The position numbers were made by a program, and so were the translations under genes. A stretch of 60,621 nucleotides of DNA from a virus. Its lineage: Duplodnaviria > Caudoviricetes. The notes beneath the pieces are model-generated. The model was not told where the DNA came from and searched no databases. It worked only from the letters and a program-made list of their open reading frames with translations. The stretch lies in IMG/VR virus record IMGVR_UViG_3300029985_000047, positions 1 to 60,621 of that record. The stretch is one strand, 5' to 3'. Every line of letters begins with the position of its first letter. Position 1 is the stretch's first letter. Of the stretch, positions 1 through 60,621 are shown piece after piece.

Positions 1-99
1 TAAACTGCAGGGCGGTGAGTTCCGGGCTTGCACATGCACCGCCAAGGAACTGGAAACAGAAGCCGCTAGTATAGCAGAACCAGCAAAGGAGTAGTTGAA

Positions 100-477
100 A
101 TGGCAGAATTCAAGGATTTGGTGGGAGTAACACTCGCGTCCATAGTGGGCGGTGAAGTGGGAAGCGATCGGATCACCTTTGAGGCTCAAGATGGTCGCAC
201 TTGGTGCATGTACCACAGCCAGGATTGCTGCGAAGTAGTTCAGGTTGAGGATATAGCTGGTGATCTGAATGATTTGATTGGAGTGCCAATTACGCAGGCA
301 GAGGAGTCCAGTAATTCAGAAGACCGGAAGCAAGGAGAATCCATGGTGGGTGAGGAGTCATTCACATGGACCTTCTACCGTATAGCTACGGCCAAAGGAC
401 TAGTGGTTATCCGTTGGCTTGGAGAATCCAACGGATACTATTCTGAAAGTGTGGACTTTAAGTCGGTGCATGGATGA
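100..477 (+). CDS. Conserved phage hypothetical protein
   Basis: AAGGAG RBS; motifs YHSQDCCE, TWTFY and GESNGYYSE recalled from a widespread phage family. Confidence 0.8.
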   Translation: MAEFKDLVGVTLASIVGGEVGSDRITFEAQDGRTWCMYHSQDCCEVVQVEDIAGDLNDLIGVPITQAEESSNSEDRKQGESMVGEESFTWTFYRIATAKGLVVIRWLGESNGYYSESVDFKSVHG

Positions 478-4401: not shown

Positions 4402-5964
4402 ATGAAATCCAAAATCTGCAGTACACAGCATGATGTAGACTACTCGGCATTGCTTAGCAGTGTCGTAGAGCACTTCAACACTGTCACTCGTAACCAAGCC
4501 AATCTTTTCACTACTGATATTGACGGAGACAAGCTCTGGCTCTACTACCTGAACAACTTAGACGAAGACATTCGTCAGCAGCATAACTGCCATTGCTGTA
4601 AGAGTTTCATTACTCGTTATGGTGGGCTGGTTGTTATCAATGAAGATGGCACCACTACATCAGCACTGTGGCCAAAGAATGAGACTCTCAGCATCTATGC
4701 AGATGCTTTCTGCGGGTTGAGACTTGTGGCTGAGCAGGCCAAAGTGACTGGGGTGTTCTACGGTAAGACTCCAGTGCTTGGTACGCCGCAGACTGGTACA
4801 TGGTCGCATATTGCAGTTACTGCCAGCAGGTTCCAGAATATGGACCGCTTGCTTATGGCTAGTCAGCACATGGCCGCTACTGTGCAGTCTTACCAAACTG
4901 TGCTAAGCACATTGTTCGACAAGGCCGGTAGCAAAGAGAACCTCGACCAGATGATCCGTGTGTTTGAAGCCGCAGCCTTACCGCGCTCAGAGAAGTTCAT
5001 CGAGCCCATTAAGTGGCTTCGTAAATTGCATGATCGCCCTAAAGGTAAACTAGGTGCTAATGTCCTATGGCGTGAAATGGCAGCTGTACCTGAAGGCTTC
5101 TTGCACCCGCGCGCCTCTGTTGTTTGGCCGTTGTTGGAGACACTACAAGCGGGCGGAGACTTTGAGGATATCAAGCGGCAGTTCATCAAAATGGCAGATC
5201 CGCTCCATTATCAACGTCCACAAGCAGCACCTACAGCTGGCAACATCAAGCAAGCTGAAGAAGTGATCGCCAAACTTGGCATTGCAAAGAGCCTAGAGCG
5301 CCGGTTCGCGCGCCTGGAAGACCTTACTACGAAGGTTTGGTTGCCAAAGGTTTCGGAAGCCCATGTGGAGGATCCTGGCTCCGTCTTTGGGCATCTTAAA
5401 GCTAGGGGCGCCACGCAGAAGAGCCTTCCGCTAGACCTGCCGGCTAAGACCATGACTTGGGAGAAGTTCGTCGACCGCATATTGCCTACAGTGCAGAAGC
5501 TGGAGTTCTATGCACCTAACCGTGGCAACTACTGCGCATTGCTAACGGCGGTGCATGCTGATGCGCCCAATATCATGAAGTGGAGTAATCCTGTATCGTG
5601 GTACGTCTACCACCCTAGAAGCTTCGCGCGGGACTGGGGCTTGTCCTCTATGCTCTGGAAGCAGGTGACAGCCGTAGTAGACACTCCCAACAAGTGGGAC
5701 GGAAAAGACTACCTTGCAGAAGGCATAGTGCTTGTGCTTAAGAACTGTGTAGACCGGCGAAGTGGACAAGGAAATGCATTGTTTCCAGAAAATCTGCGAG
5801 GTGATTTGTACAGTGTACGCTCGACCATCGAAGCGTACAGCAGAAGCGCTGAGATACAAGGCCGCGAAGAAGCCACAGCCTGTGGTTACATGATCCGTAA
5901 AGAGTCTTGCAGTATCGGGCTGCGTGCTGACGGGCAAGTCTACGTGGTGGACAGATGGGAGTAG
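4402..5964 (+). CDS. Conserved large phage protein with HNCHCC motif, function unknown
   Basis: Long ORF; QQHNCHCCKSFITRYGG and SLERRFA motifs; AAGGA RBS favours start 4402. Confidence 0.8.
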   Translation: MKSKICSTQHDVDYSALLSSVVEHFNTVTRNQANLFTTDIDGDKLWLYYLNNLDEDIRQQHNCHCCKSFITRYGGLVVINEDGTTTSALWPKNETLSIYADAFCGLRLVAEQAKVTGVFYGKTPVLGTPQTGTWSHIAVTASRFQNMDRLLMASQHMAATVQSYQTVLSTLFDKAGSKENLDQMIRVFEAAALPRSEKFIEPIKWLRKLHDRPKGKLGANVLWREMAAVPEGFLHPRASVVWPLLETLQAGGDFEDIKRQFIKMADPLHYQRPQAAPTAGNIKQAEEVIAKLGIAKSLERRFARLEDLTTKVWLPKVSEAHVEDPGSVFGHLKARGATQKSLPLDLPAKTMTWEKFVDRILPTVQKLEFYAPNRGNYCALLTAVHADAPNIMKWSNPVSWYVYHPRSFARDWGLSSMLWKQVTAVVDTPNKWDGKDYLAEGIVLVLKNCVDRRSGQGNALFPENLRGDLYSVRSTIEAYSRSAEIQGREEATACGYMIRKESCSIGLRADGQVYVVDRWE

Positions 5965-6909: not shown

Positions 6910-7325
6910 ATGACCCTTACCTGTATCAAGAACTGTGTTTTAACCGCTTGCTAGCTGAGTATCGCCTGCATAAGCGGCTGATCGTGGCGGTAGACTTTGA
7001 CGATACCGTGTTTGACTTTCACAAGGCTGGATACCAGTATGAAGCCGTACTGCGGTTGCTGCGTCGTTGCACGGCCCTGGGTTTCTACATCACGCTCTTT
7101 ACTTGCAGTGACCCATCAGAGTATGCCAGGCAAATAGCCTACTTGCTTGATTATGGCGTGCTGGTGACGAGCGTGAATGAGAACCCAGTCCAACTGCCAT
7201 TTGGCAATCATGGCAAGCCGTACTACAACATTCTGTTGGATGACCGCGCTGGATTGTGCGCCGCCTATCAAACCCTGGAGAGCGTAGCGACCCAGGCCGA
7301 AGCAGACAAGGAGCACGTCGAATGA
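6906..7325 (+). CDS. HAD-superfamily small phosphatase
   Basis: IVAVDFDDTV (DxD motif I) and LLDDRAG (motif IV); ATGA-coupled on both sides. Confidence 0.8.
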   Translation: MNDPYLYQELCFNRLLAEYRLHKRLIVAVDFDDTVFDFHKAGYQYEAVLRLLRRCTALGFYITLFTCSDPSEYARQIAYLLDYGVLVTSVNENPVQLPFGNHGKPYYNILLDDRAGLCAAYQTLESVATQAEADKEHVE

Positions 7326-8797
7326 ACATCTTTATGCCGCATGCAAAAGACTTCTACAAGAGTGGGCACGTCTTTCAGTATCCTAAAGGAACAGAGTACG
7401 TTTACAGCAATTGGACCTGCCGCAGTGATAAGTGGGCCAGCGTACTACCGGACTTCGCGCATAAGGTGGTGTTCTTCGGCTTGCAGGGAGTTTGCCAGTG
7501 GATGCTGATCGACGATTGGAACACTAGCTTCTTCAGCCAGCCACTTAAGGAAGTAGTAAACAAGTATCGACGTCGTATGGATAAAGCTCTTGGCACTGGC
7601 CGAGTGACCGTAGACCATATCGCTGCGCTTCACGTCTTGGGCTATTTACCTGTGCGCATCAAGGCATTGCCGGAGGGTAGCCGGGTAGATACCCGCGTGC
7701 CAATGTGGACAATCGTCAATACTTTGCCCGAGTTCTTTTGGGTCACCAACTTCTTGGAGACCCAGCTGAGTGCTGAGCTCTGGTTGCCGCTAACCAGTGC
7801 TACTACGGCGTACGAATATCGGCGCTTGTTTGATAAGTACGCCGAGCTTACCGGGGCCGTCAAGGCATTTGTGCCGTGGCAGGGACACGACTTCAGTATG
7901 CGTGGTATGACTGGTATCACTAGCGCGACACAGTCTGGTGCCGCACATTTGCTCAGTTTCACAGGCACAGATACTATCACTGCCATTGACTACTTGGAAG
8001 ACTACTACCACGGAGAGGCGACATTCGTAGGCGGCAGTGTACCTGCCACAGAGCACTCAGTAATGTGCATGGGAGGCGCGGCAGACGAGTTGGAGACATA
8101 CCGACGGCTCATTACTGAGGTCTATCCAGATGGTGTAGTCAGCATCGTCAGTGATACATGGGACTTTTGGCGCGTGCTTACTATCACGCTTAGAAAGCTA
8201 AAGGCGGAGATACTGGAGCGTGACGGCAAAGTGGTTATCAGACCAGATTCAGGTGACCCAGTCAAGATTATCTGTGGTGATCAAGATGCAAAGCCAGGCA
8301 CACCAGAGTACAAAGGCGCTGTACAATGTCTCTGGGAGATTTTTGGCGGTACAGTAACCCACAAGTGCTACGATACACTGGACTCTCACATTGGGCTGAT
8401 CTACGGCGACAGTATAAGTCTTGAACGTGCTCAGGAGATTCTCGCGCGTTTAGAGGCGAAGGGTTTTTCTAGTGATAATATCGTATTCGGTATTGGAAGC
8501 TACACTTACCAACATGTAACGCGCGATACGTTCGGAACGGCTATCAAAGCGACCTGGGGCGCAGTGAACGGAGAACCACGTGAGTTGTTCAAAGATCCTA
8601 AGACTGACAATGGTGTAAAGAAGTCTTTGTGCGGCCTCATTCGTGTAGAATATGAGGATGGACACTATATGGCATATGACCGTCAGGCTCCAGACCAAGA
8701 GCAGGGCGGCCTGCTAGAGCCGGTATTTGAAGACGGCCTACTAGTTAGAAGCCAGTCTTTGCAGGAGATTCGTATGAGGCTACATAGTGCTGGGTAA
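7322..8797 (+). CDS. Nicotinamide phosphoribosyltransferase-like protein (candidate NARP1 Namat)
   Basis: DFYKSGH, HDFSMRG, VPATEHS, SIVSDTWD, IRPDSG, IYGDSI and KDPKTD..KKS motifs; start refined to 7322. Confidence 0.93.
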   Translation: MNIFMPHAKDFYKSGHVFQYPKGTEYVYSNWTCRSDKWASVLPDFAHKVVFFGLQGVCQWMLIDDWNTSFFSQPLKEVVNKYRRRMDKALGTGRVTVDHIAALHVLGYLPVRIKALPEGSRVDTRVPMWTIVNTLPEFFWVTNFLETQLSAELWLPLTSATTAYEYRRLFDKYAELTGAVKAFVPWQGHDFSMRGMTGITSATQSGAAHLLSFTGTDTITAIDYLEDYYHGEATFVGGSVPATEHSVMCMGGAADELETYRRLITEVYPDGVVSIVSDTWDFWRVLTITLRKLKAEILERDGKVVIRPDSGDPVKIICGDQDAKPGTPEYKGAVQCLWEIFGGTVTHKCYDTLDSHIGLIYGDSISLERAQEILARLEAKGFSSDNIVFGIGSYTYQHVTRDTFGTAIKATWGAVNGEPRELFKDPKTDNGVKKSLCGLIRVEYEDGHYMAYDRQAPDQEQGGLLEPVFEDGLLVRSQSLQEIRMRLHSAG

Positions 8798-51833: not shown

Positions 51834-52388
51834 TTAGTCCTCCCGTACAAGTCCGATGATGGAGGCGCGCAAAGCGCCGGTGTCGATTAATGGCCGATCA
51901 CTGCCCTTAGCTGCGATGGTAGCAGGCTTATTCGACTCCCAGCCATTGCGGTCGTCCGTAAACCACCCGCGTGCTGCGTTTTGGCCGGCTAGCGCCGCCC
52001 TCATCATCTTTGCTTCAGCGCCTGGCTTATCGCCAGCTAAGTTTGCCTTGACGGAAGCAGCTAGCTCTCTGGCAATGATGTGCTTATTAGGCTCGGCCTC
52101 CGTTGCAGGCTCAAGTACCGGGCGTGCAGGAATATGCTTTAATGGTGAGCCTTTGGTGTGGATATATAGCAGCTCGGCATTGCTTACATCAGACTCCGCG
52201 ATGCTTGTCAGCCTAGCTCGCTTCTTTTTGCTCTTTGTCTTGCCGGCCATTTCAAGCAGTTGAGATGATCGCTCCGTTGCATCAGATGGAATCCCTACAT
52301 ATGCTGCAAGCTTGCCGAGTCCAGCCAACCTCTTAGCGAGCGCAGCTACGCCAGACTTACGTCCTAGTGTAATCTCGGGACGGGTCAT
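51834..52388 (-). CDS. Neck/tail-completion protein
   Basis: VGIP, IPARP.L and TIAAKGSDRPLIDTG.LR.SI. Confidence 0.85.
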   Translation of the reverse strand: MTRPEITLGRKSGVAALAKRLAGLGKLAAYVGIPSDATERSSQLLEMAGKTKSKKKRARLTSIAESDVSNAELLYIHTKGSPLKHIPARPVLEPATEAEPNKHIIARELAASVKANLAGDKPGAEAKMMRAALAGQNAARGWFTDDRNGWESNKPATIAAKGSDRPLIDTGALRASIIGLVRED

Positions 52389-53335
52389 ATAGCACCGCTT
52401 AGCTGCGCAGACTTTTCTTTACGAATAGCCCAGGCTTTCTTAGCCGCTTCGCTGCATCTAGCACGTGCAGCTGGATTTTCGTACGCTTTCCGTACACCAT
52501 TTGATATACTAGTACGGCATGCTTCAGTTCTATGGGCCTCTAGCATGCGTAGTTTTACTTCCGGGTCTGCTAGGCGCTTTTTCTGTGCCGCCGATATCTG
52601 GGCCTTTTGGGCCTGAGTTCTTGTCGCGCCCTTTGGTCCCAGTATCTTACCTAGAGCTTTATACTGGGCCCAAGTATTTTTTGCAGTACGTGAACTGAGC
52701 TCGGCTGCTACAGGATTCTCTGCAAAATACTTCGAAACAGCTACAGAAGTCTTAATGTGTTCTTCTTTGTGCTGATATCGCTGCATAGTAGCTCGCGAAG
52801 TTTTAGCACGCTCTTCCACACTAGCGTATCTTTTATAGGCACTTTTTGACGCTTTTTCGCGCGCATCTGCGGTAGTATGAGTTTCTAAGTGAGCCTGCCT
52901 ATTTGCGGGATCGCTGAACCATAGGCGTTTATTAGCCGAGTTTCTTGCGCGAGCTTCTGGAGAGCCTAGCAGTAGCTTCAAAAGTTTCCTTGTCTGCTCT
53001 GACACTCCAGTACCTTGTCGCCCACCAGTTGTAAGGTTATAGCCGCCACCTTTAGGGCCGTCTACAAATGATCTAAACTTCTTGATATAAAAAATTTCTT
53101 TGCTATTAAGAAGCTTAACTGGTCCACTCCAAAGTACCTCTGCTGTAAAACCACTTACTCCATACTTGTTAATTGCGCGATGAATATACAGCTTAGAAGA
53201 TTTTTCAGAGTCGTATATATGGCTGCTCCATCTGGTCTCTACAGTTAGAAAGTTTTTATGCTGCCCAATGTACCACTTATCAGTAGCCAGACAATGCAGC
53301 CCGTAAATGCAGCCGTGCTGAGCCTCGATTGCCAC
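52385..53335 (-). CDS. GIY-YIG homing endonuclease, free-standing
   Basis: CIYG...WYIGQ, RW..H, AI.KYG, GYNLTTGG and basic helical repeats; AAAGGAGG before GTG 53335. Confidence 0.9.
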   Translation of the reverse strand: MAIEAQHGCIYGLHCLATDKWYIGQHKNFLTVETRWSSHIYDSEKSSKLYIHRAINKYGVSGFTAEVLWSGPVKLLNSKEIFYIKKFRSFVDGPKGGGYNLTTGGRQGTGVSEQTRKLLKLLLGSPEARARNSANKRLWFSDPANRQAHLETHTTADAREKASKSAYKRYASVEERAKTSRATMQRYQHKEEHIKTSVAVSKYFAENPVAAELSSRTAKNTWAQYKALGKILGPKGATRTQAQKAQISAAQKKRLADPEVKLRMLEAHRTEACRTSISNGVRKAYENPAARARCSEAAKKAWAIRKEKSAQLSGAI

Positions 53336-53345
53336 CGGACCTCCT

Positions 53346-54311
53346 TTACCAAATAAGTGCCGGACCACTCCCAATCACTTTTGCCATGCTAGCCAGCTGA
53401 ACACCGTACACCGTCAAATTCCACTGGCCCCAAGCTTCAAGCGAGGTAAGCTGAGCATAGCTGACGCTTACGTCGCCTACGCTCTTGCTTACCTCGATGC
53501 CCGTGGCAATTCCTTGTGCCGCCACTTGTGCTGCACCGTAGACGACAGGTGTACTAGATGTGACTGGTGTGGGCCACACTGCATATAAATGGTCAGTCGT
53601 CTTAGTGGCTAGACTCAACGTGACGGTGATACCAGACAGACTGTAGTCTACTCCAGGCGTCTGGAACACACCATTGCGTGTCAAGGACTGCAGCTGCCCA
53701 CCTGGTGGAACTGCACTAATGGTATACACTGTACCTGGCTGGACACCTACTGGAATTTCGCCGTGGATACCCGTCTGCGTGTTGCTTAGCACCTCTGCTA
53801 CGTCACTCTTGACGTAGAGTGTGAGGTAGTGCGCAATGAACCACGACATGGCGAGATACCACGCGTCCTGCCAGCGAGCTTGAACTAGTGAAGCTTGCGC
53901 CAAGTTTAGGTAAAGCTGGATTACCATGATAGGCACTATGGGCGCCTCATACACTTGCAGCGTAACAGTCCCAGAAGCTGTAGCAGGCTTGTTCACTGTA
54001 ATGGAGCTAACACCTAGCACTGTAATTACCGTACCAGGTTGGAGTCCTACGCCTTGTATGAACTGCCCGTAGCCCAGGCCTGCTAGAGAAGCCAACGCGA
54101 CTTGATTAGAGCCGGCAACCGTTGTAGCATTTCCTACGAGAGTAGCCGCTCCAAAGAACTTCGGATTCACAGCTAGAAAATCATCAAGGTAATACGGTGG
54201 GTTGGTGCCGAACACAAAGCCGACATTACCTACGCCCGGCTGCGCACACCAGAACTCCGCTCCGGAGCCCCACGCAGTTTGCAGCCATCCGTTGAAATTA
54301 GGTGTACTCAC
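53346..54311 (-). CDS. Head-tail adaptor (DUF4054-like) with two inserted beta domains
   Basis: FIAHYLTL, SKSVGDVSVSY and W.LT.YG. Confidence 0.85.
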   Translation of the reverse strand: MSTPNFNGWLQTAWGSGAEFWCAQPGVGNVGFVFGTNPPYYLDDFLAVNPKFFGAATLVGNATTVAGSNQVALASLAGLGYGQFIQGVGLQPGTVITVLGVSSITVNKPATASGTVTLQVYEAPIVPIMVIQLYLNLAQASLVQARWQDAWYLAMSWFIAHYLTLYVKSDVAEVLSNTQTGIHGEIPVGVQPGTVYTISAVPPGGQLQSLTRNGVFQTPGVDYSLSGITVTLSLATKTTDHLYAVWPTPVTSSTPVVYGAAQVAAQGIATGIEVSKSVGDVSVSYAQLTSLEAWGQWNLTVYGVQLASMAKVIGSGPALIW

Positions 54312-54329
54312 CGTATTACCTCGCTTTGC

Positions 54330-54746
54330 TTAACGCCGGGTGTTGATCAAGCCCTTGGCGGCCTTAGGCGCTTTTGCTGCAGCCTTAGGCGCGGCAAACT
54401 CCAGCTCGTCGTCCTCATTGATCTCCTCAGCACCCGCGCTGGGAGGCACTACTGGAGCAGGGCCCATCTCCTCGTCGCCTTCATCAAGCTCAATGGCCTC
54501 AGATGCCGTACTGATCTTGTCAAGTGGCGGAATGACGACAGGAGCTTCAACTGGTATAGCTGCTGTAGGTGGCGTCAAGTCCACAATGCTGCCGTCAGCA
54601 ACACCCAACTTATAGCCAATAGTCTTACGTACCCAGTTGGGAGCAGGCACTGGGACATTGCCGGCCGGGGCCTGGAACCTGAGCTCACGATCGCCGTGGT
54701 TGGCGAGAAAGATTTTTGAACGCTTGAAAAACAATTGCAATGCCAT
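54330..54746 (-). CDS. Hypothetical protein with acidic/Pro tail
   Basis: AAGGAGAGG RBS; follows the major capsid gene. Confidence 0.75.
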   Translation of the reverse strand: MALQLFFKRSKIFLANHGDRELRFQAPAGNVPVPAPNWVRKTIGYKLGVADGSIVDLTPPTAAIPVEAPVVIPPLDKISTASEAIELDEGDEEMGPAPVVPPSAGAEEINEDDELEFAAPKAAAKAPKAAKGLINTRR

Positions 54747-54774
54747 GTAGTTATCCTCTCCTTGCGGAAGATTG

Positions 54775-54900
54775 GTTGAAGTGCTGCACGGATGTCAAGT
54801 TGTCACCCGAAGGCGGCAAGGAGCACCCGAGTGCCGTTTGGCACCCGTGCAACCCGGTTAAAGGCATCCATCGCGGCAATGGGACGACCGTGGCGGAGTT
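54775..54900 (-). ncRNA. Candidate structured RNA element
   Basis: 12-bp closing stem with G-U pairs enclosing two hairpins, one with cUUCGg; additional upstream hairpin. Confidence 0.5.
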
Positions 54901-54931
54901 TGCGGCCTTAAAGACGAGTAATTGGGCATGG

Positions 54932-54960
54932 AAAAGCCCACGGTGTGATCCGTGGGCTTT
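54932..54960 (-). terminator. Terminator after the major capsid gene
   Basis: aaagcccacgg / ccgtgggcttt inverted repeat ending in a U run. Confidence 0.8.
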
Positions 54961-54967
54961 CTAGAGT

Positions 54968-56008
54968 TTAGATTCCGTCCTGATAAACTGCAGTTTGGGT
55001 GCGCTTGAAGATGACCTGCGAGATACAGCCCGCAAACATAGTTTCATAAGCCCCGCCTGCCCGTGTAGTTGGCACGGACAGTGCTTGCATCATAGGCTGT
55101 GGGACTTTGAGATACAAACTTTTCTTGGAGTTCTTATAGTACGTGCCACGATCAAGACCATTGCCCTGCTGACCGACTGGAGCAGTGTTGCCTACACCTT
55201 GGCCGCTGATCCACGGATTCGGCAAGAAGTTGATCTTGAACTGGACGCCGTGGTGCGCTGCAACACAGTTCTCTTCAATGTACTTGATGGTGCTCATGGT
55301 CACCGCAGAACCGCCGATGGTCATAGGCTGGGTCAAGTAAGCGAACTGAGTATAGGGGATAAGCAGACGATCGGCCATGCCCTCTTCGCTAGAGTAGCCG
55401 CTGTTCTGGACAGTCTGATTGAGCGCCGTATTGACGTCCGCCAGAATCTCCTGAGGTGACTTGCCAGACCAAGTGGTTTTGCCGCTTGCGCCCGCCGGAA
55501 CTGTGTACTCATACACATTGGGGTTGTTGATGAGACCGGGATCGCCCAGGAAACCGGCGTAGACAACAAAGTCAAGCGCCTTGCCCCAGTTGGCCTCGAC
55601 AGACTCCTCATAAAGCTCCTGCAAGCTAAACGGCGGAGCCTGCCCAGTGTGGAGAGCAGTCTCCATGCGGCGCAAGTCTACCCAGGTGATGGTCATGCCC
55701 ATCGCCCAGATATACGTTTTCCAGATGCCCTTCTGGATGTCAGCCTGTGCTTCGGGAATCTCCGTGTTGTTAGTTCCCTGGAGACCGAAGTACTGCGAGC
55801 CGGTGGTGGCGTAGTTGGAGGCAAACGCCGAGATGAACTCAGGGAAGCCGCCGCCTACTTCAACATGGATGTCACGCTTGTGCGTAACAGCCTGCAACGG
55901 ACGTACAAGGTCCGTGTCGATGATTTCCAGTTGGCTCTGAAGGAACGCCAGACCAGAAGCGCCTGCAGTGTCGAATGCCTGAGCGCGATTGCCGGATTTG
56001 CGAATCAT
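54968..56008 (-). CDS. Major capsid protein (DUF2184/encapsulin-like HK97 fold)
   Basis: FL.SQLE.ID, G..GLINNP, W..KSP.EIL.D.N and Y.DGI C-terminus. Confidence 0.92.
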   Translation of the reverse strand: MIRKSGNRAQAFDTAGASGLAFLQSQLEIIDTDLVRPLQAVTHKRDIHVEVGGGFPEFISAFASNYATTGSQYFGLQGTNNTEIPEAQADIQKGIWKTYIWAMGMTITWVDLRRMETALHTGQAPPFSLQELYEESVEANWGKALDFVVYAGFLGDPGLINNPNVYEYTVPAGASGKTTWSGKSPQEILADVNTALNQTVQNSGYSSEEGMADRLLIPYTQFAYLTQPMTIGGSAVTMSTIKYIEENCVAAHHGVQFKINFLPNPWISGQGVGNTAPVGQQGNGLDRGTYYKNSKKSLYLKVPQPMMQALSVPTTRAGGAYETMFAGCISQVIFKRTQTAVYQDGI

Positions 56009-56032
56009 GTAATCTCCTGTGGTCTAGGTTGC

Positions 56033-56845
56033 TTAGGCCGCGTTGCGGATCTTGATGGTGATTTCCAGAACGTTGTTGCTGTCCACGTAGCCGGTACGAG
56101 CGACCATGTTGGGCAGTGCAACCAAGTTACTGAAAGTGAGAGGTGAGGTGGCAGTGATAGCGGTGGTCAGGGCCTGACTCAGCACGATAGCGGTATAAGC
56201 GCCGGCCGTGCCCGTGCCGCTGACTACATACGTACCAGGCTGGACACCAGGACCACTAACGGGCTGGCCAACGAAGACATTAGTGCCGGTCAACGTGATG
56301 GCAGTAGCACCTGCAGCAGCCGCAGTAGCGCCCGTCAGAGTGAACAGGTCAGTCGCGGCCGGATTGGTCTCGTAGTCACCAATAGTACCAGCGGTGACGG
56401 CCGTGTTCAGTACAACACGAGTGTAGATCTGAGCGCCCGCATTCGGCGTGCCGACGGCAAGGTTGATAGTGCCCGAACCACGCTCCATAACCTCAGCGAT
56501 CTGCAAGTTGTTGTAGTTACCCAGCTGCTGAACACCAGGAGTGACAGCGTTGGGGTAGACAAGCTGAGTCTTGACCTCACGCACTGCCATGCCGGCGAAG
56601 TAAGCGGCGACGTTAGCGATGTTCGCAGTAGCAGCCGCAACGTAGTCAGCAACGGAAGTATAGACTCCGCCCTGTGCATTAGGAATCTGAACCGCTGGAT
56701 CACCAAAGTTCAGGACATTGGTGACGTTGGTCGGCATGAACTGACGCGCTACAATGACGCGCTCACCGAATCGAGAGACCGCGCCCGGGAACCCAATATT
56801 GGGGCCGGTTACGGGAATAGTCTGCCCAAAAGCATACTGGGTCAT
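56033..56845 (-). CDS. Capsid decoration/cement protein
   Basis: GFPG.VSR, FG.P.V and F.G.AVR.VK; lies between protease and capsid genes. Confidence 0.8.
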   Translation of the reverse strand: MTQYAFGQTIPVTGPNIGFPGAVSRFGERVIVARQFMPTNVTNVLNFGDPAVQIPNAQGGVYTSVADYVAAATANIANVAAYFAGMAVREVKTQLVYPNAVTPGVQQLGNYNNLQIAEVMERGSGTINLAVGTPNAGAQIYTRVVLNTAVTAGTIGDYETNPAATDLFTLTGATAAAAGATAITLTGTNVFVGQPVSGPGVQPGTYVVSGTGTAGAYTAIVLSQALTTAITATSPLTFSNLVALPNMVARTGYVDSNNVLEITIKIRNAA

Positions 56846-56847
56846 GG

Positions 56848-58404
56848 TTACTTATCTCCTTTGGCAGCGTTATCATAGAACGCTTGCAGTTTGGCAACGG
56901 CATCTGCACCGCTGTCGTTCGCCTTGCCAGTTTTAGAGTCATGCGCACGCGCGCTACCCGCAAACTTGCCATAGCTACCAGTACTAGCCTTGCTGCTACG
57001 CTTCACACTACCCAAGGCAGCGTTGAACGCATTGACCACGGCAGCGTCATTGCTGCGTGCAACGACAGGGCGCAGAAGCTTAAGCACGGCAGCAGCACCA
57101 TCCTTGGCATCACGCGCGCGGCCTTTCTTCTTGTCGTCAGCAGGCTCGAGCTCCTCCTCGCCAGACTCGACAACCTCCATACCAGGCTCGCCCTCGTCGT
57201 CCTCGGCCTCTTCCTCTTCTTCCTCAGAGTCGTCGGCTTCTTCCTCAGAGTCGTCGGCTTCTTCCTCTTCTTCAGGATCAAGCCCAAGGATATCGTCAAG
57301 CTTCTTTACTTCTGCGTCCTCAACTTCGACAGGCAGCTCTTCCTGCTTGGCGTGCGCGGGCTCTTCCTCTTCTTCAGAGAAAAACTCACTGAGCAGTGAC
57401 TTCAGCTCTTCGAGGTCAGTGTCGCGCCCACGCTTATCCTCTGCGTCGAGCTTACGATCAAGGGCGTCATGCATACGCTTACGATGGCTGTCCTCAACCT
57501 CTTCTTCCTCTTCTTCGGGCTCGACATCGCGGGACTTCTTCTTGTCCTTGCCGCGCTTCTTGTCGTCAGCCGGATTTACCTCGACTTCGCTGCCTTCATC
57601 AGGCCACTCATCGCGACTCTTTTTCTTATCGTCAGCCTCATCAGGTGGTGCGAGTTCTGCCAACTGTTCCGGCTGGATATCAGCGTCTTGCGCCGCCGCC
57701 CTCAGCCCGAGGCCCCAGATGTGCTTCCGTAGATTCTTCATCACGGGTTTGCTCTCCTTAGTGGTTAGTAATGCGCTAAGTTTAGATACCACAAGTCCGT
57801 TCCCGGACCTAGGCGGCGTGGCCGCAGGTTCGGACGGAGCAGCATCATTTATACGAGCCTCGTGGCCAGCTCTTCCACGTGGCACCACAGCTTCATGGTT
57901 GCCCCTGATACTGGCCATACAAATCTTTTTGCCGCGCGCTTTAAGCGCATAGTCATATCCTGCAGAAAGCTCCTCAACTTCTTTGCGCTTGACTTTTCCA
58001 AGCAGAGGCTCTGCAGTGATAATGACATCAGCAAGCAATGGCCATTCACCGTCGTCCAGAGGCTCATCACCTTTGCGCACATTTTGAATATGGCCACATG
58101 CATACTTTTTAAAATTCTCTGGGTTAATAAAATCGGGCGGATGCTCGTCTGTTACGGGTTTGCCCTCGAAGCTCGCAATGGTCGCAGGGTCGAACACATC
58201 ATCAGGATGCCGATAGATGTCGATGCTAGCGCTTGGGTTTGAAAGATCAACTCCCAAGTCTCCGGCAGCTTCTTGTGGAAGGTCCTTTACTTGATAGGAC
58301 TGGAAGCCGGTCCTAGCAATGACGCACCCGGGCACAATGAGAAACCCTTCCGGAGTCTCGCTGCGCCCTGCGCTGAGTCGGCTTGCGTAGTAGCCGCGCG
58401 CCAT
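56848..58404 (-). CDS. Prohead protease-scaffold (DUF2213-like)
   Basis: TPEGFL, IARTG, SFEGKPVTDEHP, ELSAGY and NHEAVV.RGRAG; acidic scaffold tail. Confidence 0.92.
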   Translation of the reverse strand: MARGYYASRLSAGRSETPEGFLIVPGCVIARTGFQSYQVKDLPQEAAGDLGVDLSNPSASIDIYRHPDDVFDPATIASFEGKPVTDEHPPDFINPENFKKYACGHIQNVRKGDEPLDDGEWPLLADVIITAEPLLGKVKRKEVEELSAGYDYALKARGKKICMASIRGNHEAVVPRGRAGHEARINDAAPSEPAATPPRSGNGLVVSKLSALLTTKESKPVMKNLRKHIWGLGLRAAAQDADIQPEQLAELAPPDEADDKKKSRDEWPDEGSEVEVNPADDKKRGKDKKKSRDVEPEEEEEEVEDSHRKRMHDALDRKLDAEDKRGRDTDLEELKSLLSEFFSEEEEEPAHAKQEELPVEVEDAEVKKLDDILGLDPEEEEEADDSEEEADDSEEEEEEAEDDEGEPGMEVVESGEEELEPADDKKKGRARDAKDGAAAVLKLLRPVVARSNDAAVVNAFNAALGSVKRSSKASTGSYGKFAGSARAHDSKTGKANDSGADAVAKLQAFYDNAAKGDK

Positions 58405-60621
58405 TTACTTGGCCTCACTGTGAAAGTGCTTAAGGAATGCTCCACGTATATGATCCGGCAATTTCATCCAGCTTTCGCCGGCCCAATTATGCGCTTGACC
58501 CGCCGTAATACCGTTTGCAATAAGAATCTTTTCTTGAGCAGCAAATGGCAAAGACGCCCATGCAGTGCTTGCGGCGCCATCCTTCGCCCTCTTGGTACCG
58601 GCGGGAATCACCTCAAACCCACTATCAGTAATCCGAACAGACTCGCCCGCCCGCGTCCGCTGCAAAGCAGAAGTCAGTGCTCTGTCAGCGGAGTCGAATG
58701 CCTGATGCTTGCCCTTAGATGGATGGTCGTACAGACCCTCGTGCCCGCCGACAAGGCGCCGCTGACACTCTACGATGCCATCTCTGGCGCTATCCTCACC
58801 TTGGTGGTTGCCAAGTCTACGGTAGCCAGTCGCAGCAGCGCGGTAGCTGTCTAGAGCACGCGCACGGTCGCCTGCAATCTCGTACTGGTTAGCACGAGCT
58901 AAGTGATCTTGCGGCTCAGAACCGGAAATTTGGGCGGAGTCCTTGGCCTTACCTTCCACAGCCTCTTTTGCAGCCGTTACAGATGGGTAGAGGCCTCCTG
59001 AAAGATGCGGCATGTAGCGAATCTCTCCACCCGCCGTCTTCACCTTCCAGATGCTCTCGCCCTTAGCCGTGCCTACTATCTCCAACCGTTCTGGACCGGC
59101 GTCCTTGGCCTTCTTCTTCTGCCGCTCTGCGTGTTCACGAGCATTTGCTTCACGCAGTTCTGCTCGCCGGCGCTCCCATTCTGCCTGGCGAAACTCTGGA
59201 GACTTGCCCGCTGCAAAACCAATCGGTACTTCGGAGTCTTTTGCTGGCTTTTTCTTTGGCGTACCAGCCGGCTCGATCTTTACACGGCCGCTGCCGGCAC
59301 AAGTTACACAAGTACTGCCTTTCGTACGTTCACCGGCACCACTACAAGTTGGGCACCAAGCATTGTCAGCATCCTTCCCCGGCACTGGAATAGGCTCCAT
59401 GTCAAGCGCCTTTGCTCTTGCGTCTCTCAGCTTCTTCAAGTCGTCGCCCTTTCCAAGTGCATAAGGTACAACCTTCTCGCCCATTTCTTTCATGGCAGAC
59501 TCATGCGCACGCAACCGGTTGCTCGACTCGCCAGGATTCTTTGCTTCAAGCTTGGCCTGATGCTTCTTGCGCAGGTCGAAGTACTTCTGCTCTTCGGCGC
59601 TGGACCATTTGTCGGTAGCTTTATGTAGCAGGCTTGTCTTGCCAACTTCCCAAGATTCAGTAGTAGACTTTAGCCTATCAGGAACGACAATAACTCTGCC
59701 GCCTTTTTGCTCCACTACTGTACCAGTCTCACCACTAGAGCGCTTAGCCGCCTCACCTTTGTAGAAAGGCCCATCATTGTCCTGACTCTTCGTAATACCA
59801 GTAGCATGCTTGGCAAGCGCCAGCTTCTTCTCGGCTGGTGTGGGGATGGGCTCCAAAGAGTCATCTTTTGCTTTGGCGGCTTTCCGCGCGGCATAGTACG
59901 CAGATTGCAGTTCCTCGTATTTATTACGCAATTTAGCTTCACGCTCAGGCGTGCTCGACTTACTACGCCGTGCGGACTCGTACGCAGCTAGAGCCTTGCC
60001 AGCCGCTCGTTTAGCTGTGTACTCTGCCTCGTCTATATCTACGTCTTTCCCCTCGCCCTTAACAGGGATGGGCTCAAGGTCGCTGTCTTTTGCTGGCGCA
60101 GGCGCTTGCCCCCCATTCTGCAGCATACTAGTCTGTGCCTTCCAAGCCTGGGCTTTCGTCGCACCTGGAAACTTCTTTACGTAGTTCTGATAGAAGCCGG
60201 CAAACATGTACGCGCCTTCTTCTGATGCATTCGCAAAGTTACAGGCCCACTCAAATGCAGGACGTTGTGCTGATGTGATTTTAAAAGCATCCTCGCCCCT
60301 CTTGCTGTAAGCAGGCGCTTGCCCCCCATTCTGCAGCATACTAGTCTGTGCCTTCCAAGCCTGGGCTTTCGTCGCACCTGGAAACTTCTTTACGTAGTTC
60401 TGATAGAAGCCGGCAAACATGTACGCGCCTTCTTCTGATGCATTCGCAAAGTTACAGGCCCACTCAAATGCAGGACGTTGTGCTGATGTGATTTTAAAAG
60501 CATCCTCGCCCCTCTTGCTGTAAGCAATCGCAACGGCTTGTTTCTCGGGCTTGCCTGCTTTGCGCTCAATGGCGATGTTCTTCTCAAGTGCAGCTCTGCT
60601 CTTACCAGGAACTAACGGCAT
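58405..60621 (-). CDS. Modular head-region protein, candidate protease-processed polyprotein
   Basis: MPL..GKS...NI..E...GKP.KQAVAIA N-terminus, then short modules separated by [AGS]xD motifs. Confidence 0.85.
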   Translation of the reverse strand: MPLVPGKSRAALEKNIAIERKAGKPEKQAVAIAYSKRGEDAFKITSAQRPAFEWACNFANASEEGAYMFAGFYQNYVKKFPGATKAQAWKAQTSMLQNGGQAPAYSKRGEDAFKITSAQRPAFEWACNFANASEEGAYMFAGFYQNYVKKFPGATKAQAWKAQTSMLQNGGQAPAPAKDSDLEPIPVKGEGKDVDIDEAEYTAKRAAGKALAAYESARRSKSSTPEREAKLRNKYEELQSAYYAARKAAKAKDDSLEPIPTPAEKKLALAKHATGITKSQDNDGPFYKGEAAKRSSGETGTVVEQKGGRVIVVPDRLKSTTESWEVGKTSLLHKATDKWSSAEEQKYFDLRKKHQAKLEAKNPGESSNRLRAHESAMKEMGEKVVPYALGKGDDLKKLRDARAKALDMEPIPVPGKDADNAWCPTCSGAGERTKGSTCVTCAGSGRVKIEPAGTPKKKPAKDSEVPIGFAAGKSPEFRQAEWERRRAELREANAREHAERQKKKAKDAGPERLEIVGTAKGESIWKVKTAGGEIRYMPHLSGGLYPSVTAAKEAVEGKAKDSAQISGSEPQDHLARANQYEIAGDRARALDSYRAAATGYRRLGNHQGEDSARDGIVECQRRLVGGHEGLYDHPSKGKHQAFDSADRALTSALQRTRAGESVRITDSGFEVIPAGTKRAKDGAASTAWASLPFAAQEKILIANGITAGQAHNWAGESWMKLPDHIRGAFLKHFHSEAK
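60098..60526. repeat. Perfect in-frame 213-bp tandem duplication
   Basis: 60098-60310 is identical to 60311-60523, with a gca microhomology at the junction. Confidence 0.95.

Follow-up and report, generated by a model that had tools for sequence, protein, structure and literature searches.

A candidate cargo polyprotein in the head genes of peat phages, with exchangeable modules bordered by an aspartate motif

We have analysed a 738-amino-acid (aa) open reading frame (ORF) at 58405..60621 on the minus strand of the linear IMG/VR virus record IMGVR_UViG_3300029985_000047, a stretch of 60,621 bp which we call the window. The ORF, P0001 in our protein set, contains 17 [KRQPE][AGS]xD sites and belongs to the head module of a tailed phage. 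Our proposal is that it encodes a cargo polyprotein of a peat phage of about 100 kb with PB1-like head genes, made of modules of 10-70 aa which each end in [KR/Q/P/E]-[A/G/S]-x-Asp. The precursor would be co-assembled into the prohead, probably by means of its near-universal core rather than its N-terminal module. The DUF2213 protease encoded next to it would then cut after exposed motif Asp residues, as it would at the end of the capsid leader and across its own scaffold tail, and the cuts would release about a dozen mostly basic mini-proteins together with short acidic spacers. Related phages gain, lose, duplicate and reorder the modules as cassettes whose borders are the proposed cut motifs. 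We infer from the data below that the motif is cut, that the polyprotein is located in the prohead and that its fragments stay in the virion. Cutting of the polyprotein sites inside the prohead by a DUF2213 protease with the gp21 fold is in our judgement the best explanation of what we observed, with a probability of roughly 0.6.

The preliminary description of this DNA, made from its letters alone, had reported a recurring Asp motif in the ORF, in the tail of the protease and at the end of the capsid leader. We found all 17 sites that it named in the polyprotein (D40, 111, 179, 193, 253, 281, 337, 394, 407, 417, 462, 507, 561, 591, 610, 643 and 681), as well as those in the scaffold tail (KSRD twice, RGKD, RGRD, RARD, RAHD/S and KAND/S) and the capsid leader ending in RAQAFD/T. 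The motif is also far more frequent than the composition of the protein would predict. In 2000 composition-preserving shuffles, 3.6 ± 1.8 sites of the form [KRQPE][AGS].D were expected against the 17 present, and 1.8 ± 1.3 of the narrower form [KR][AGS].D against 11; not one of the 2000 shuffles matched the observed count for either pattern. Half of the Asp residues of the polyprotein (17/34) sit in the motif. Its density per 100 aa is 2.30, compared with 2.70 in the protease-scaffold protein (26% of its Asp) and 0.28 in the window's other 63 long ORFs (45 sites in 16,124 aa; 6.3% of Asp), an 8-fold difference from a mechanically listed set in which some ORFs may not be genes. Among 12 homologs, [KR][AGS].D was enriched at p<=0.004 in 11. 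Because the motif was defined after the sequence had been viewed, these figures describe an excess and are not a test of a prior hypothesis. The excess itself is real, and so is the shared location of the polyprotein gene in the head module.

Directly downstream of the polyprotein gene lies the DUF2213-type protease gene, as had been reported. Its 518-aa product matches Pfam DUF2213 (PF09979) over residues 14-187 (E 2.9e-38; 131.9 bits, cutoff 22) and PHROG 530, head maturation protease (E 2.6e-44). The protease domain occupies residues 1-190 (57835..58404, minus strand) and is followed by an acidic scaffold tail (56848..57834, minus strand); the whole protein has 14 sites of the wide motif. 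The AlphaFold model of this protein is moderate, with a predicted local distance difference test score (pLDDT) of 51-82 in blocks over residues 1-170 (65-82 over 11-150). When it was compared with 48,161 representative chains, T4 gp21 (5jbl_A) was found at Z 10.0, with a root-mean-square deviation of 3.4 Å over 140 of 165 residues, whereas the next match reached Z 5.5; the herpesvirus (VZV) protease scored Z 4.9. Foldseek likewise placed gp21 at the top (E 0.014). As far as a moderate model allows, the DUF2213 domain has the fold of the T4 gp21 prohead protease. His88, His105, Ser147 and His170 are invariant in the protease alignment (A3). Sequence searches of the PDB returned no match for the protease and just a chance match for the capsid protein (E 0.37).

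Does the motif also occur where a prohead protease would be expected to cut? In the scaffold tail it does fill the sequence as claimed, and sites such as DRAR-AAD/GA and SARARD/K keep their place across the alignment. The major capsid protein (PF09950; 54968..56008, minus strand) has a 13-aa leader, encoded at 55970-56008, which ends in RAQAFD/T. In related capsid proteins the leaders are 10-22 aa long and variable in length and sequence up to R-[AG]-x-[AV]-F-D, and 12 of the 12 capsids inspected align from the very next residue, so that the motif stands precisely where conservation starts. Even the capsid protein of the Firmicute phage AB434P2 of Agathobaculum, only 34% identical, reads RAMD/AAG at the homologous boundary. 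The head protease gp245 of SPN3US cuts after A-x-Glu, several times per long propeptide, and the pieces mostly leave the head, according to the accessible text of the report (PMC10052503). A small P3 residue with an acidic P1 residue therefore has a precedent, with Asp here in place of Glu. We infer from these patterns that the DUF2213 proteases may be Asp-specific.

The relatives of the polyprotein were collected by a word-indexed search, which gave 11 homologs each covering 7-28% of the query, and by a pattern scan of IMG/VR, which gave 20 loci. The order polyprotein, protease-scaffold protein, 270-aa protein, capsid protein was found in 18 of the 20 loci, the other two (L009 and L020) being cut short. 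Across these loci the capsids are 75-89% identical, the 270-aa proteins 60-77% and the proteases 42-49% along the best high-scoring segment pair (HSP), with 55% over 228 aa in L009. The best match of the polyprotein in most loci is confined to its core, about 110 aa. A profile of this core retrieved 51 representatives of 216-1001 aa at E<=1e-10 among 1.84 billion proteins; weaker matches consist of multiple stretches over the first half of the profile and may be helical-repeat proteins. The modules recur in varied combinations and orders, each ending in x-[AGSTV]-x-D. In many cases a linker typical of the clade comes next: LEPIPV in the window, ELQPVG or ALPLPV in relatives. We considered these linkers as long recombination homologies and dropped the idea, as the DNA repeats at the linkers are short and imperfect (e.g. 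30 nt at 73%).

The ends of similarity between family members fall on the motif more often than expected. Using the broad motif [AGSTVC].D for the boundary statistics, we found that 85 of 522 BLASTP HSP ends among 23 polyproteins lie on a motif Asp (21.5 expected) and 62 one residue later (20.5 expected), and that 39 and 35 of 484 HSP starts lie 3 and 2 residues before the Asp (16.9 and 18.6 expected). In a set of 62 proteins (65 minus three contained in others), 272 of 2,562 HSP ends were on a motif Asp against 104 expected. We then counted as clean insertions those of 15 aa or more in one protein opposite 5 aa or fewer in the other. In 49 of the 99 unique cases both ends were within 4 aa of a motif Asp, compared with 11.6 ± 3.1 (maximum 20) in 300 randomisations. 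The order of modules was inverted in 51 of the 765 protein pairs having two or more HSPs. Single cases are plain to see: a 57-aa cassette (ERTVRE...YSRAKD) lies between two AKD sites in L018 and is absent from L005, and a 45-aa module of alpha/beta appearance lies between ASD/ and AND/ inside the core of L018 (1818-2318) and L019 (8013-8513). The loop that takes up this latter insert connects two core helices, the core being conserved apart from it; at this point L021 carries another insert, which is shorter. The HSP ends, the insertions and the inversions together bear out the earlier idea that orthologs gain and lose modules at the D motifs, and they support the view that the polyprotein is built as a chain whose modules, with the Asp motif as their border, can be exchanged one by one.

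One might object that the ORF is an artefact, either a spurious long frame or the chimeric or mis-assembled end of a contig. It does start at the contig's very last base, its ATG being the final triplet of the record, and it contains an exact 213-nt tandem repeat, by which residues 34-104 equal residues 105-175 (60098..60523, minus strand). This is one module copied together with its preceding RGED cut motif, and it accounts for the two RGED/A sites of the preliminary description, where the duplication went unmentioned. In 4 of 4 other sequencing runs, from peat or permafrost, the repeat unit was covered about twice as deeply as its flanks (145 vs 66, 154 vs 71, 13.2 vs 7.1 and 13.3 vs 8.5) and a 57-nt contig spans the junction between the copies at flank depth, so the duplication is real. 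Homologs occur in 51 representative clusters (E<=1e-10), the gene has the same neighbours in 20 viral loci, and 38 of 62 relatives start with MPL, MPM or MPT. We regard an artefact as effectively refuted. The record breaks off at position 60621, on the polyprotein ATG, whereas contigs of the other runs extend 2.2 kb further and the longest records there reach about 105 kb; the window accordingly lacks the portal and MuF part of the head module. We also asked whether the frame might continue around a circle from one contig end to the other. Although 72 in-frame codons can be read at 1..216 (minus strand), a plus-strand ORF overlaps them and the contigs of other runs continue differently, and we rejected this reading.

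The modules of P0001, all encoded on the minus strand, can be described from the N-terminus. Residues 1-40 (60502..60621) form the N-terminal module, which ends in RGED, matches phrog_2423 (E 1.6e-12) and is modelled as a helix hairpin with pLDDT 81-96; it is a homolog of PB1 gp20 and SCUT-S1 ORF22. After the duplicated module comes, at residues 180-193 (60043..60084), a 14-aa spacer, SDLEPIPVKGEGKD, between two motif sites (pLDDT under 50), and its LEPIP type of linker recurs at residues 254-262 and 408-413. Residues 194-253 (59863..60042) are a helical hairpin ending in KAKD, with helices 196-219 and 225-254 at pLDDT 91-96. The following module, 254-281 (59779..59862), is of the conserved type LALAKH..G.TKSQD; the corresponding regular expression matches 41 of the 62 family members, and D281 is nearly invariant in alignment A1. 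Residues 282-337 (59611..59778), the GETGTVVEQKGGRVIV module, end in KATD and have similar-looking segments, judged by eye and unaligned, in P0032 and P0041. An SH3/KOW-like fold had been suggested for this segment; we could not confirm it, since the segment was modelled at pLDDT under 50. A helical module at residues 338-394 (59440..59610) also occurs in L002, L008, L014 and L015 with different neighbours, being 58% identical to residues 433-488 of L008 and 46% to L014 amid unrelated flanking modules. The supposed CxxCxGxG zinc finger fared better in part: residues 418-462 (59236..59370), ending in PAKD, do contain the segment CxxCxGxG...CxxCxGxG of zinc-ribbon type, and a similar-looking module lies between RARD/ and VKD/ in L007, but the match to Pfam DnaJ_CXXCXGXG was below threshold (E 0.016).

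Towards the C-terminus, residues 463-507 (59101..59235; SEVPIGFAAGKSPEF...) form a helical module ending in KAKD, with a modelled helix at 475-507, which by eye is also present in P0012 between GKD/ and KAKD/. Residues 508-561 (58939..59100) are a small alpha/beta module, likewise ending in KAKD; its look-alikes in an ESM Atlas structure search are stand-alone viral proteins of 58-113 aa and DUF1508-like clusters, with scores below the tool's bar, and are leads only. The conserved core at residues 562-681 (58579..58938; alignment A4) consists of TPR/MIT-like helices and a small beta unit, ends in RAKD and is modelled at pLDDT 94-97 over 570-620. It is the only part common to nearly the whole family, and its ESM Atlas look-alikes, TPR/MIT-like clusters also below the tool's bar, are again leads only. 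The C-terminal helical module, residues 682-738 (58408..58578), is common to P0001 and L008 only. No family could be assigned to most of this material. None of the 23 polyproteins reached a curated Pfam threshold (best E 0.0015), no effector or peptidase family was found, and phrog_2423 was the sole match in the PHROG scan of the same 23.

The AlphaFold model of the whole polyprotein, from an alignment of 23 rows, has a pLDDT of 63 and a predicted template modelling score of 0.27. It contains confident helical units at residues 9-42, 196-254, 341-382, 475-507, 570-623 and 645-671, with low-confidence stretches between them. A Foldseek search of the PDB yielded no match at E<=0.001; the rows that it did list were weak and MIT/TPR-like, with E 0.57 at best. 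The 17 sites lie mostly outside the helices: 10 in segments with pLDDT under 50, 4 within two residues of a helix end, 1 in a loop and 2 inside core helices. The loop site, D643, reads QAFD/S, the same four residues as in the capsid leader. Cutting at all sites would give 18 pieces of 10-71 aa, of which 13 would be basic (isoelectric point at least 8.3) and three, all short spacers or pieces, acidic.

How would such a precursor enter the prohead? The preliminary description had ascribed targeting to the N-terminal segment MPL..GKS..KQAVAIA, and our comparisons did not bear this out. Phrog_2423 was found in 14 of 23 polyproteins and the regular expression in 23 of 62, and the apparently full-length relatives P0009 and L007 start with MPL.. 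and proceed directly to other modules. As it is not universal, the N-module is unlikely to be an obligatory targeting signal. The core signature was found in 60 of 62 family members; should a single element be responsible for entry into the prohead, the core would be the better candidate. The N-module is nevertheless the part with counterparts in cultured phages, where tblastn found it in 432 phage records, 303 of them from Pseudomonas. PB1-like phages have the order portal, MuF, N-module protein, DUF2213 protein (E 1.1e-32), Phage_cement protein, capsid protein, which is the architecture of the window; PB1 and SCUT-S1 have the homolog as a gene of 68 aa with MuF on one side and the DUF2213 protein on the other. 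PB1 gp20 consists of the N-module, KKAKD and a 21-aa tail; SCUT-S1 ORF22 (68 aa) is 60% identical to P0001 residues 1-35 over 35 aa. The latter protein (7.46 kDa) was detected in virions by 7 peptides with 77% coverage (PMC6521218, Table 1). The N-module is thus head-associated, given that its 68-aa PB1-type homolog is a virion protein. In PB1 itself (L025), about 550 nt between gp21 and the DUF2213 gene (5344-5896) are unannotated and closed in the three forward frames. A tblastn match to the N-module in Tunturi_3 was left unused, being out of frame with the annotated coding sequence and outside a head module.

Cultured relatives also offer a view of the capsid leader. Capsid residues 1-65 are not visible in the cryo-electron microscopy structure of E217, according to the accessible text of PMC10329688. 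The deposited E217 capsid chain (PDB 8frs_B) comprises residues 66-382, and the PB1 capsid protein reads ..SAMD64-S65-N66, so the E217 capsid model begins two residues after A-M-D. These cultured-phage data fit Asp-directed processing in DUF2213 phages without proving it. The polyprotein itself was not found in cultured phages: tblastn with the whole protein and megablast with positions 54000-60621 gave no match among 50,697 GenBank phage records, and the nearest cultured capsids are under 35% identical.

If the polyprotein is cut, do the fragments have a later role? One alternative is a sacrificial assembly core, an auxiliary internal scaffold or filler that assists prohead building and is then chopped so that its peptides exit before DNA entry and do nothing afterwards. 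Its motif density, like that of the protease-scaffold protein (2.30 vs 2.70 per 100 aa), would suit such a part, as would predicted fragments of only 10-71 aa and the want of any match between the modules of the 23 polyproteins and a known enzyme or effector in the Pfam and PHROG scans; the SPN3US long propeptides, which are cut several times and mostly leave the head, are a parallel (PMC10052503, accessible text). However, the modules are conserved as units (46-62% identity) beside unrelated neighbours, shuffled and duplicated, which argues for selection on each module rather than on bulk. The content also varies greatly between phages with capsids about 80% identical, which is odd for an essential structural part; moreover, 13 of the 18 predicted fragments are basic whereas the scaffold tail is acidic, and the PB1-type N-module protein remains in virions. 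We consider a sacrificial core unlikely.

It may also be that the protein is not cut at all. It could be a minor head or ejection protein of the beads-on-a-string type, with flexible linkers rich in Lys, Ala and Asp, in which the recurring D-x-L-x-P-V/I and the C-terminal ..EVQPV would act as short binding motifs and not as protease sites, for instance as anchors to the capsid interior similar to cargo-loading peptides. The linker after the Asp is indeed conserved within clades (LEPIPV; ELQPVG or ALPLPV), 33 of 62 proteins end with a linker element, like a terminal docking peptide, and there are polyvalent proteins, the N4 virion RNA polymerase among them, that enter the particle without processing (PMC5512222, accessible text). 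Yet the invariant part is the Asp with its small P3 residue, while the downstream linker is missing at many sites, in the scaffold tail and in the capsid leader, and the same motif stands precisely at the capsid-leader boundary. The two readings are also compatible, as a protease site could include the linker on its primed side. An uncut protein seems to us quite improbable. A related puzzle is the C-terminal stub of 3-12 aa that follows the last motif Asp in 47 of 62 family members, with an ..EVxPV or similar ending in 33 of 62. We count it in favour of cutting, since such a stub makes little sense without processing at the last Asp or a signal function of its own; it may reflect a primed-side requirement of the protease or be a terminal docking peptide.

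Proteins that are injected together with the DNA act before transcription, and T4 IPI* and P1 Dar are counter-defence factors. Could the fragments of the polyprotein be such proteins? Like the preliminary description, we can only tentatively propose that they are injected effectors, possibly with an anti-defence role. The prohead would then be a loading dock, in which any small protein inserted between two x-[A/G/S]-x-Asp sites becomes cargo; the freed mini-proteins would be injected and act before phage expression, e.g. against defences, with a rapid turnover of cassettes. This is a possibility that we rate as doubtful. Besides the polyprotein, a second protein of the head module and the portal C-terminus would, on the same speculative footing, act as carriers. 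What looks like this second gene of cassette type is seen in relatives (L008:5394-7196; L012:5872-6909) and encodes an N-terminal domain of about 110 aa (phrog_5845, E 1.6e-15) followed by variable motif-bounded modules. The phrog_5845 domain starts with G-x-C-F...LASIL and is peptidase-like by eye only. This upstream protein of 300-600 aa has 1.7 sites per 100 aa, compared with 0.33 in MuF and 0.14 in a 1,417-aa neighbour, and a 61-aa module is common to it and the polyprotein of the same phage (62% identity, E 3e-19), motif-terminated in both. The relatives' portals (L008:2205-5171; L012:2600-5041) carry a C-terminal InPase domain (PF18823, E 6.8e-28). The junction between portal and InPase has the Asp motif (..QARD/A or ..RATD/E), with extra motif-bounded inserts in L008. 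MuF and the portal-InPase fusion lie upstream of the polyprotein in L008, L012 and L019, in the region beyond the window end. In the relatives, the Asp motif thus also marks parts of other head proteins that are likely to lie in the capsid interior.

Several points weigh against cutting of the polyprotein by the DUF2213 protease as we propose it. Cleavage and packaging are deduced for an uncultured phage that is known here from its genes alone, and no description of the cleavage specificity of DUF2213 proteases was found in the accessible parts of the open-access literature. Model quality is modest (pLDDT 63 for the polyprotein and 51 for the protease protein). The preliminary description had named predicted folds spanning the motifs as evidence against cutting, and such a fold was found at the core only, where D591 (RALD) and D610 (QGED) lie inside confidently modelled helices, the other 15 sites being in low-pLDDT segments, at helix ends or in the loop. 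Inside the capsid fold, too, there is a KALD, at D146. A cut can therefore not be defined by the motif alone, and the core is probably, on the predicted structure, a folded unit in which some motifs may be left uncut. As for the boundary counts, they are not independent events because the sequences are related, the broad motif [AGSTVC].D was picked after inspection, and a motif-free residue profile at HSP ends shows only a 2.0-fold excess of Asp, which is weaker than the motif-anchored tests. The protein of the window does not have the C-terminal stub of most relatives, and the distant cultured DUF2213-protease phages Mulock and AB434P2 have no polyprotein. No module of the 23 polyproteins matches a known effector family in the Pfam and PHROG scans. 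Finally, the authors of the E217 structure allow that capsid residues 1-65 are either cleaved or merely disordered (PMC10329688, accessible text).

How does the proposed polyprotein compare with known systems? The internal proteins of T4 have a capsid-targeting sequence, and processing in T4 has L/I-x-E specificity. T4 IPI-III and Alt and the inner-body and ejection proteins of phiKZ and SPN3US are likewise neighbours of head genes and share with capsid or scaffold a protease motif with a small P3 and an acidic P1 residue. Here, however, P1 would be Asp instead of Glu, and one precursor would yield about a dozen unrelated mini-modules, where theirs gives one mature protein and a discarded propeptide; the modules of the window family behave as site-bounded cassettes, and their cleavage is predicted. 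RNA viruses and retroviruses use the polyprotein strategy, with one frame, many products and a virus protease acting at particle maturation, as would be the case here; there is no homology, and the products here would be accessory mini-proteins of a tailed double-stranded DNA phage, not a replication or structural core. PB1 gp20 and SCUT-S1 ORF22 (phrog_2423, Pbunavirus) occupy the same slot between MuF and the DUF2213 protein, but as a two-piece protein compared with the 17-site chain here. In SPN3US there are several cuts per precursor at an AXE motif (PMC10052503, accessible text), and the window protease shares the gp21 fold. The polyvalent proteins of phages and conjugative elements described by Iyer et al. 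(2017; PMC5512222) are also multi-domain, MuF- or portal-linked, mosaic and fast-evolving, are proposed to be virion-borne and released by proteolysis, and one of their domains, InPase (PF18823, E 6.8e-28), sits on the portal of the window's relatives. Those proteins have recognisable enzymatic or DNA-binding domains and often a zincin-like peptidase of their own, whereas 0 of the 23 polyproteins here reach a Pfam threshold or show a peptidase; the modules here are much smaller (10-70 aa), and the prohead protease is proposed to act in trans at a fixed inter-module motif. We found no description of such a gene type, or of a phage-head polyprotein, in the open-access literature. Compared with T4 or giant-phage internal proteins and polyvalent proteins, what appears new is the use of tiny, family-less modules, a fixed trans-protease motif as cassette border and Asp at P1.

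The record is 60% complete by the CheckV estimate, and records of related phages are about 100-105 kb. For the stretch 59700-60621, 86-97% of sampled words were present in the 24 runs listed (23 peat and one permafrost metagenome), so the phage recurs in peat habitats. On the minus strand, the polyprotein gene is followed by the genes of the 518-aa DUF2213 protein, the 270-aa protein, the PF09950 major capsid protein and a DUF4054 head-completion protein. The 270-aa protein (56033..56845, minus strand) had no match in the Pfam and PHROG scans; its slot, syntenic in 18 loci, is that of the cement or decoration protein of PB1-like phages, and the PB1-type protein in this slot does match Pfam Phage_cement. 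A 329-aa ORF (52385-53374, minus strand), located between the gene for the DUF4054 protein and the structural gene that comes next, is without a Pfam match at E<=0.001; its N-terminus resembles what we take to be a GIY-YIG homing-endonuclease motif. Elsewhere the window encodes a DUF3383 protein, an SLT transglycosylase-domain protein, a family-A DNA polymerase, a NAMPT-like enzyme and an SNF2 helicase. The NAMPT-like gene (7256-8797, plus strand), with its matches to NAPRTase/NAMPT (PF04095, E 6.5e-38) and NAMPT_N (E 2.3e-06), suggests that the phage encodes NAD salvage. At 1000-1700 long ORFs on the two strands overlap across a stretch of hexapeptide repeats (GASIGN/GASIGD on the plus strand).

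The conservative result is already a new annotation, a cassette-built family of head-module proteins in peat phages for which there is no Pfam family. If the proposed cutting is true, the carrier, the cassette and the protease motif would make up a genetic grammar for loading and exchanging many small proteins in the capsid, and a sequence rule would be at hand for finding such cargo in metagenomes. It would also offer a route for packaging foreign peptides in phage heads. Asp-specific processing would be suggested for the widespread and unstudied DUF2213 proteases, including those of therapeutic PB1-like Pseudomonas phages. And if the prohead does serve as a loading dock, these phages would have a counterpart of viral polyprotein processing, devoted to swappable, pre-made early effectors.

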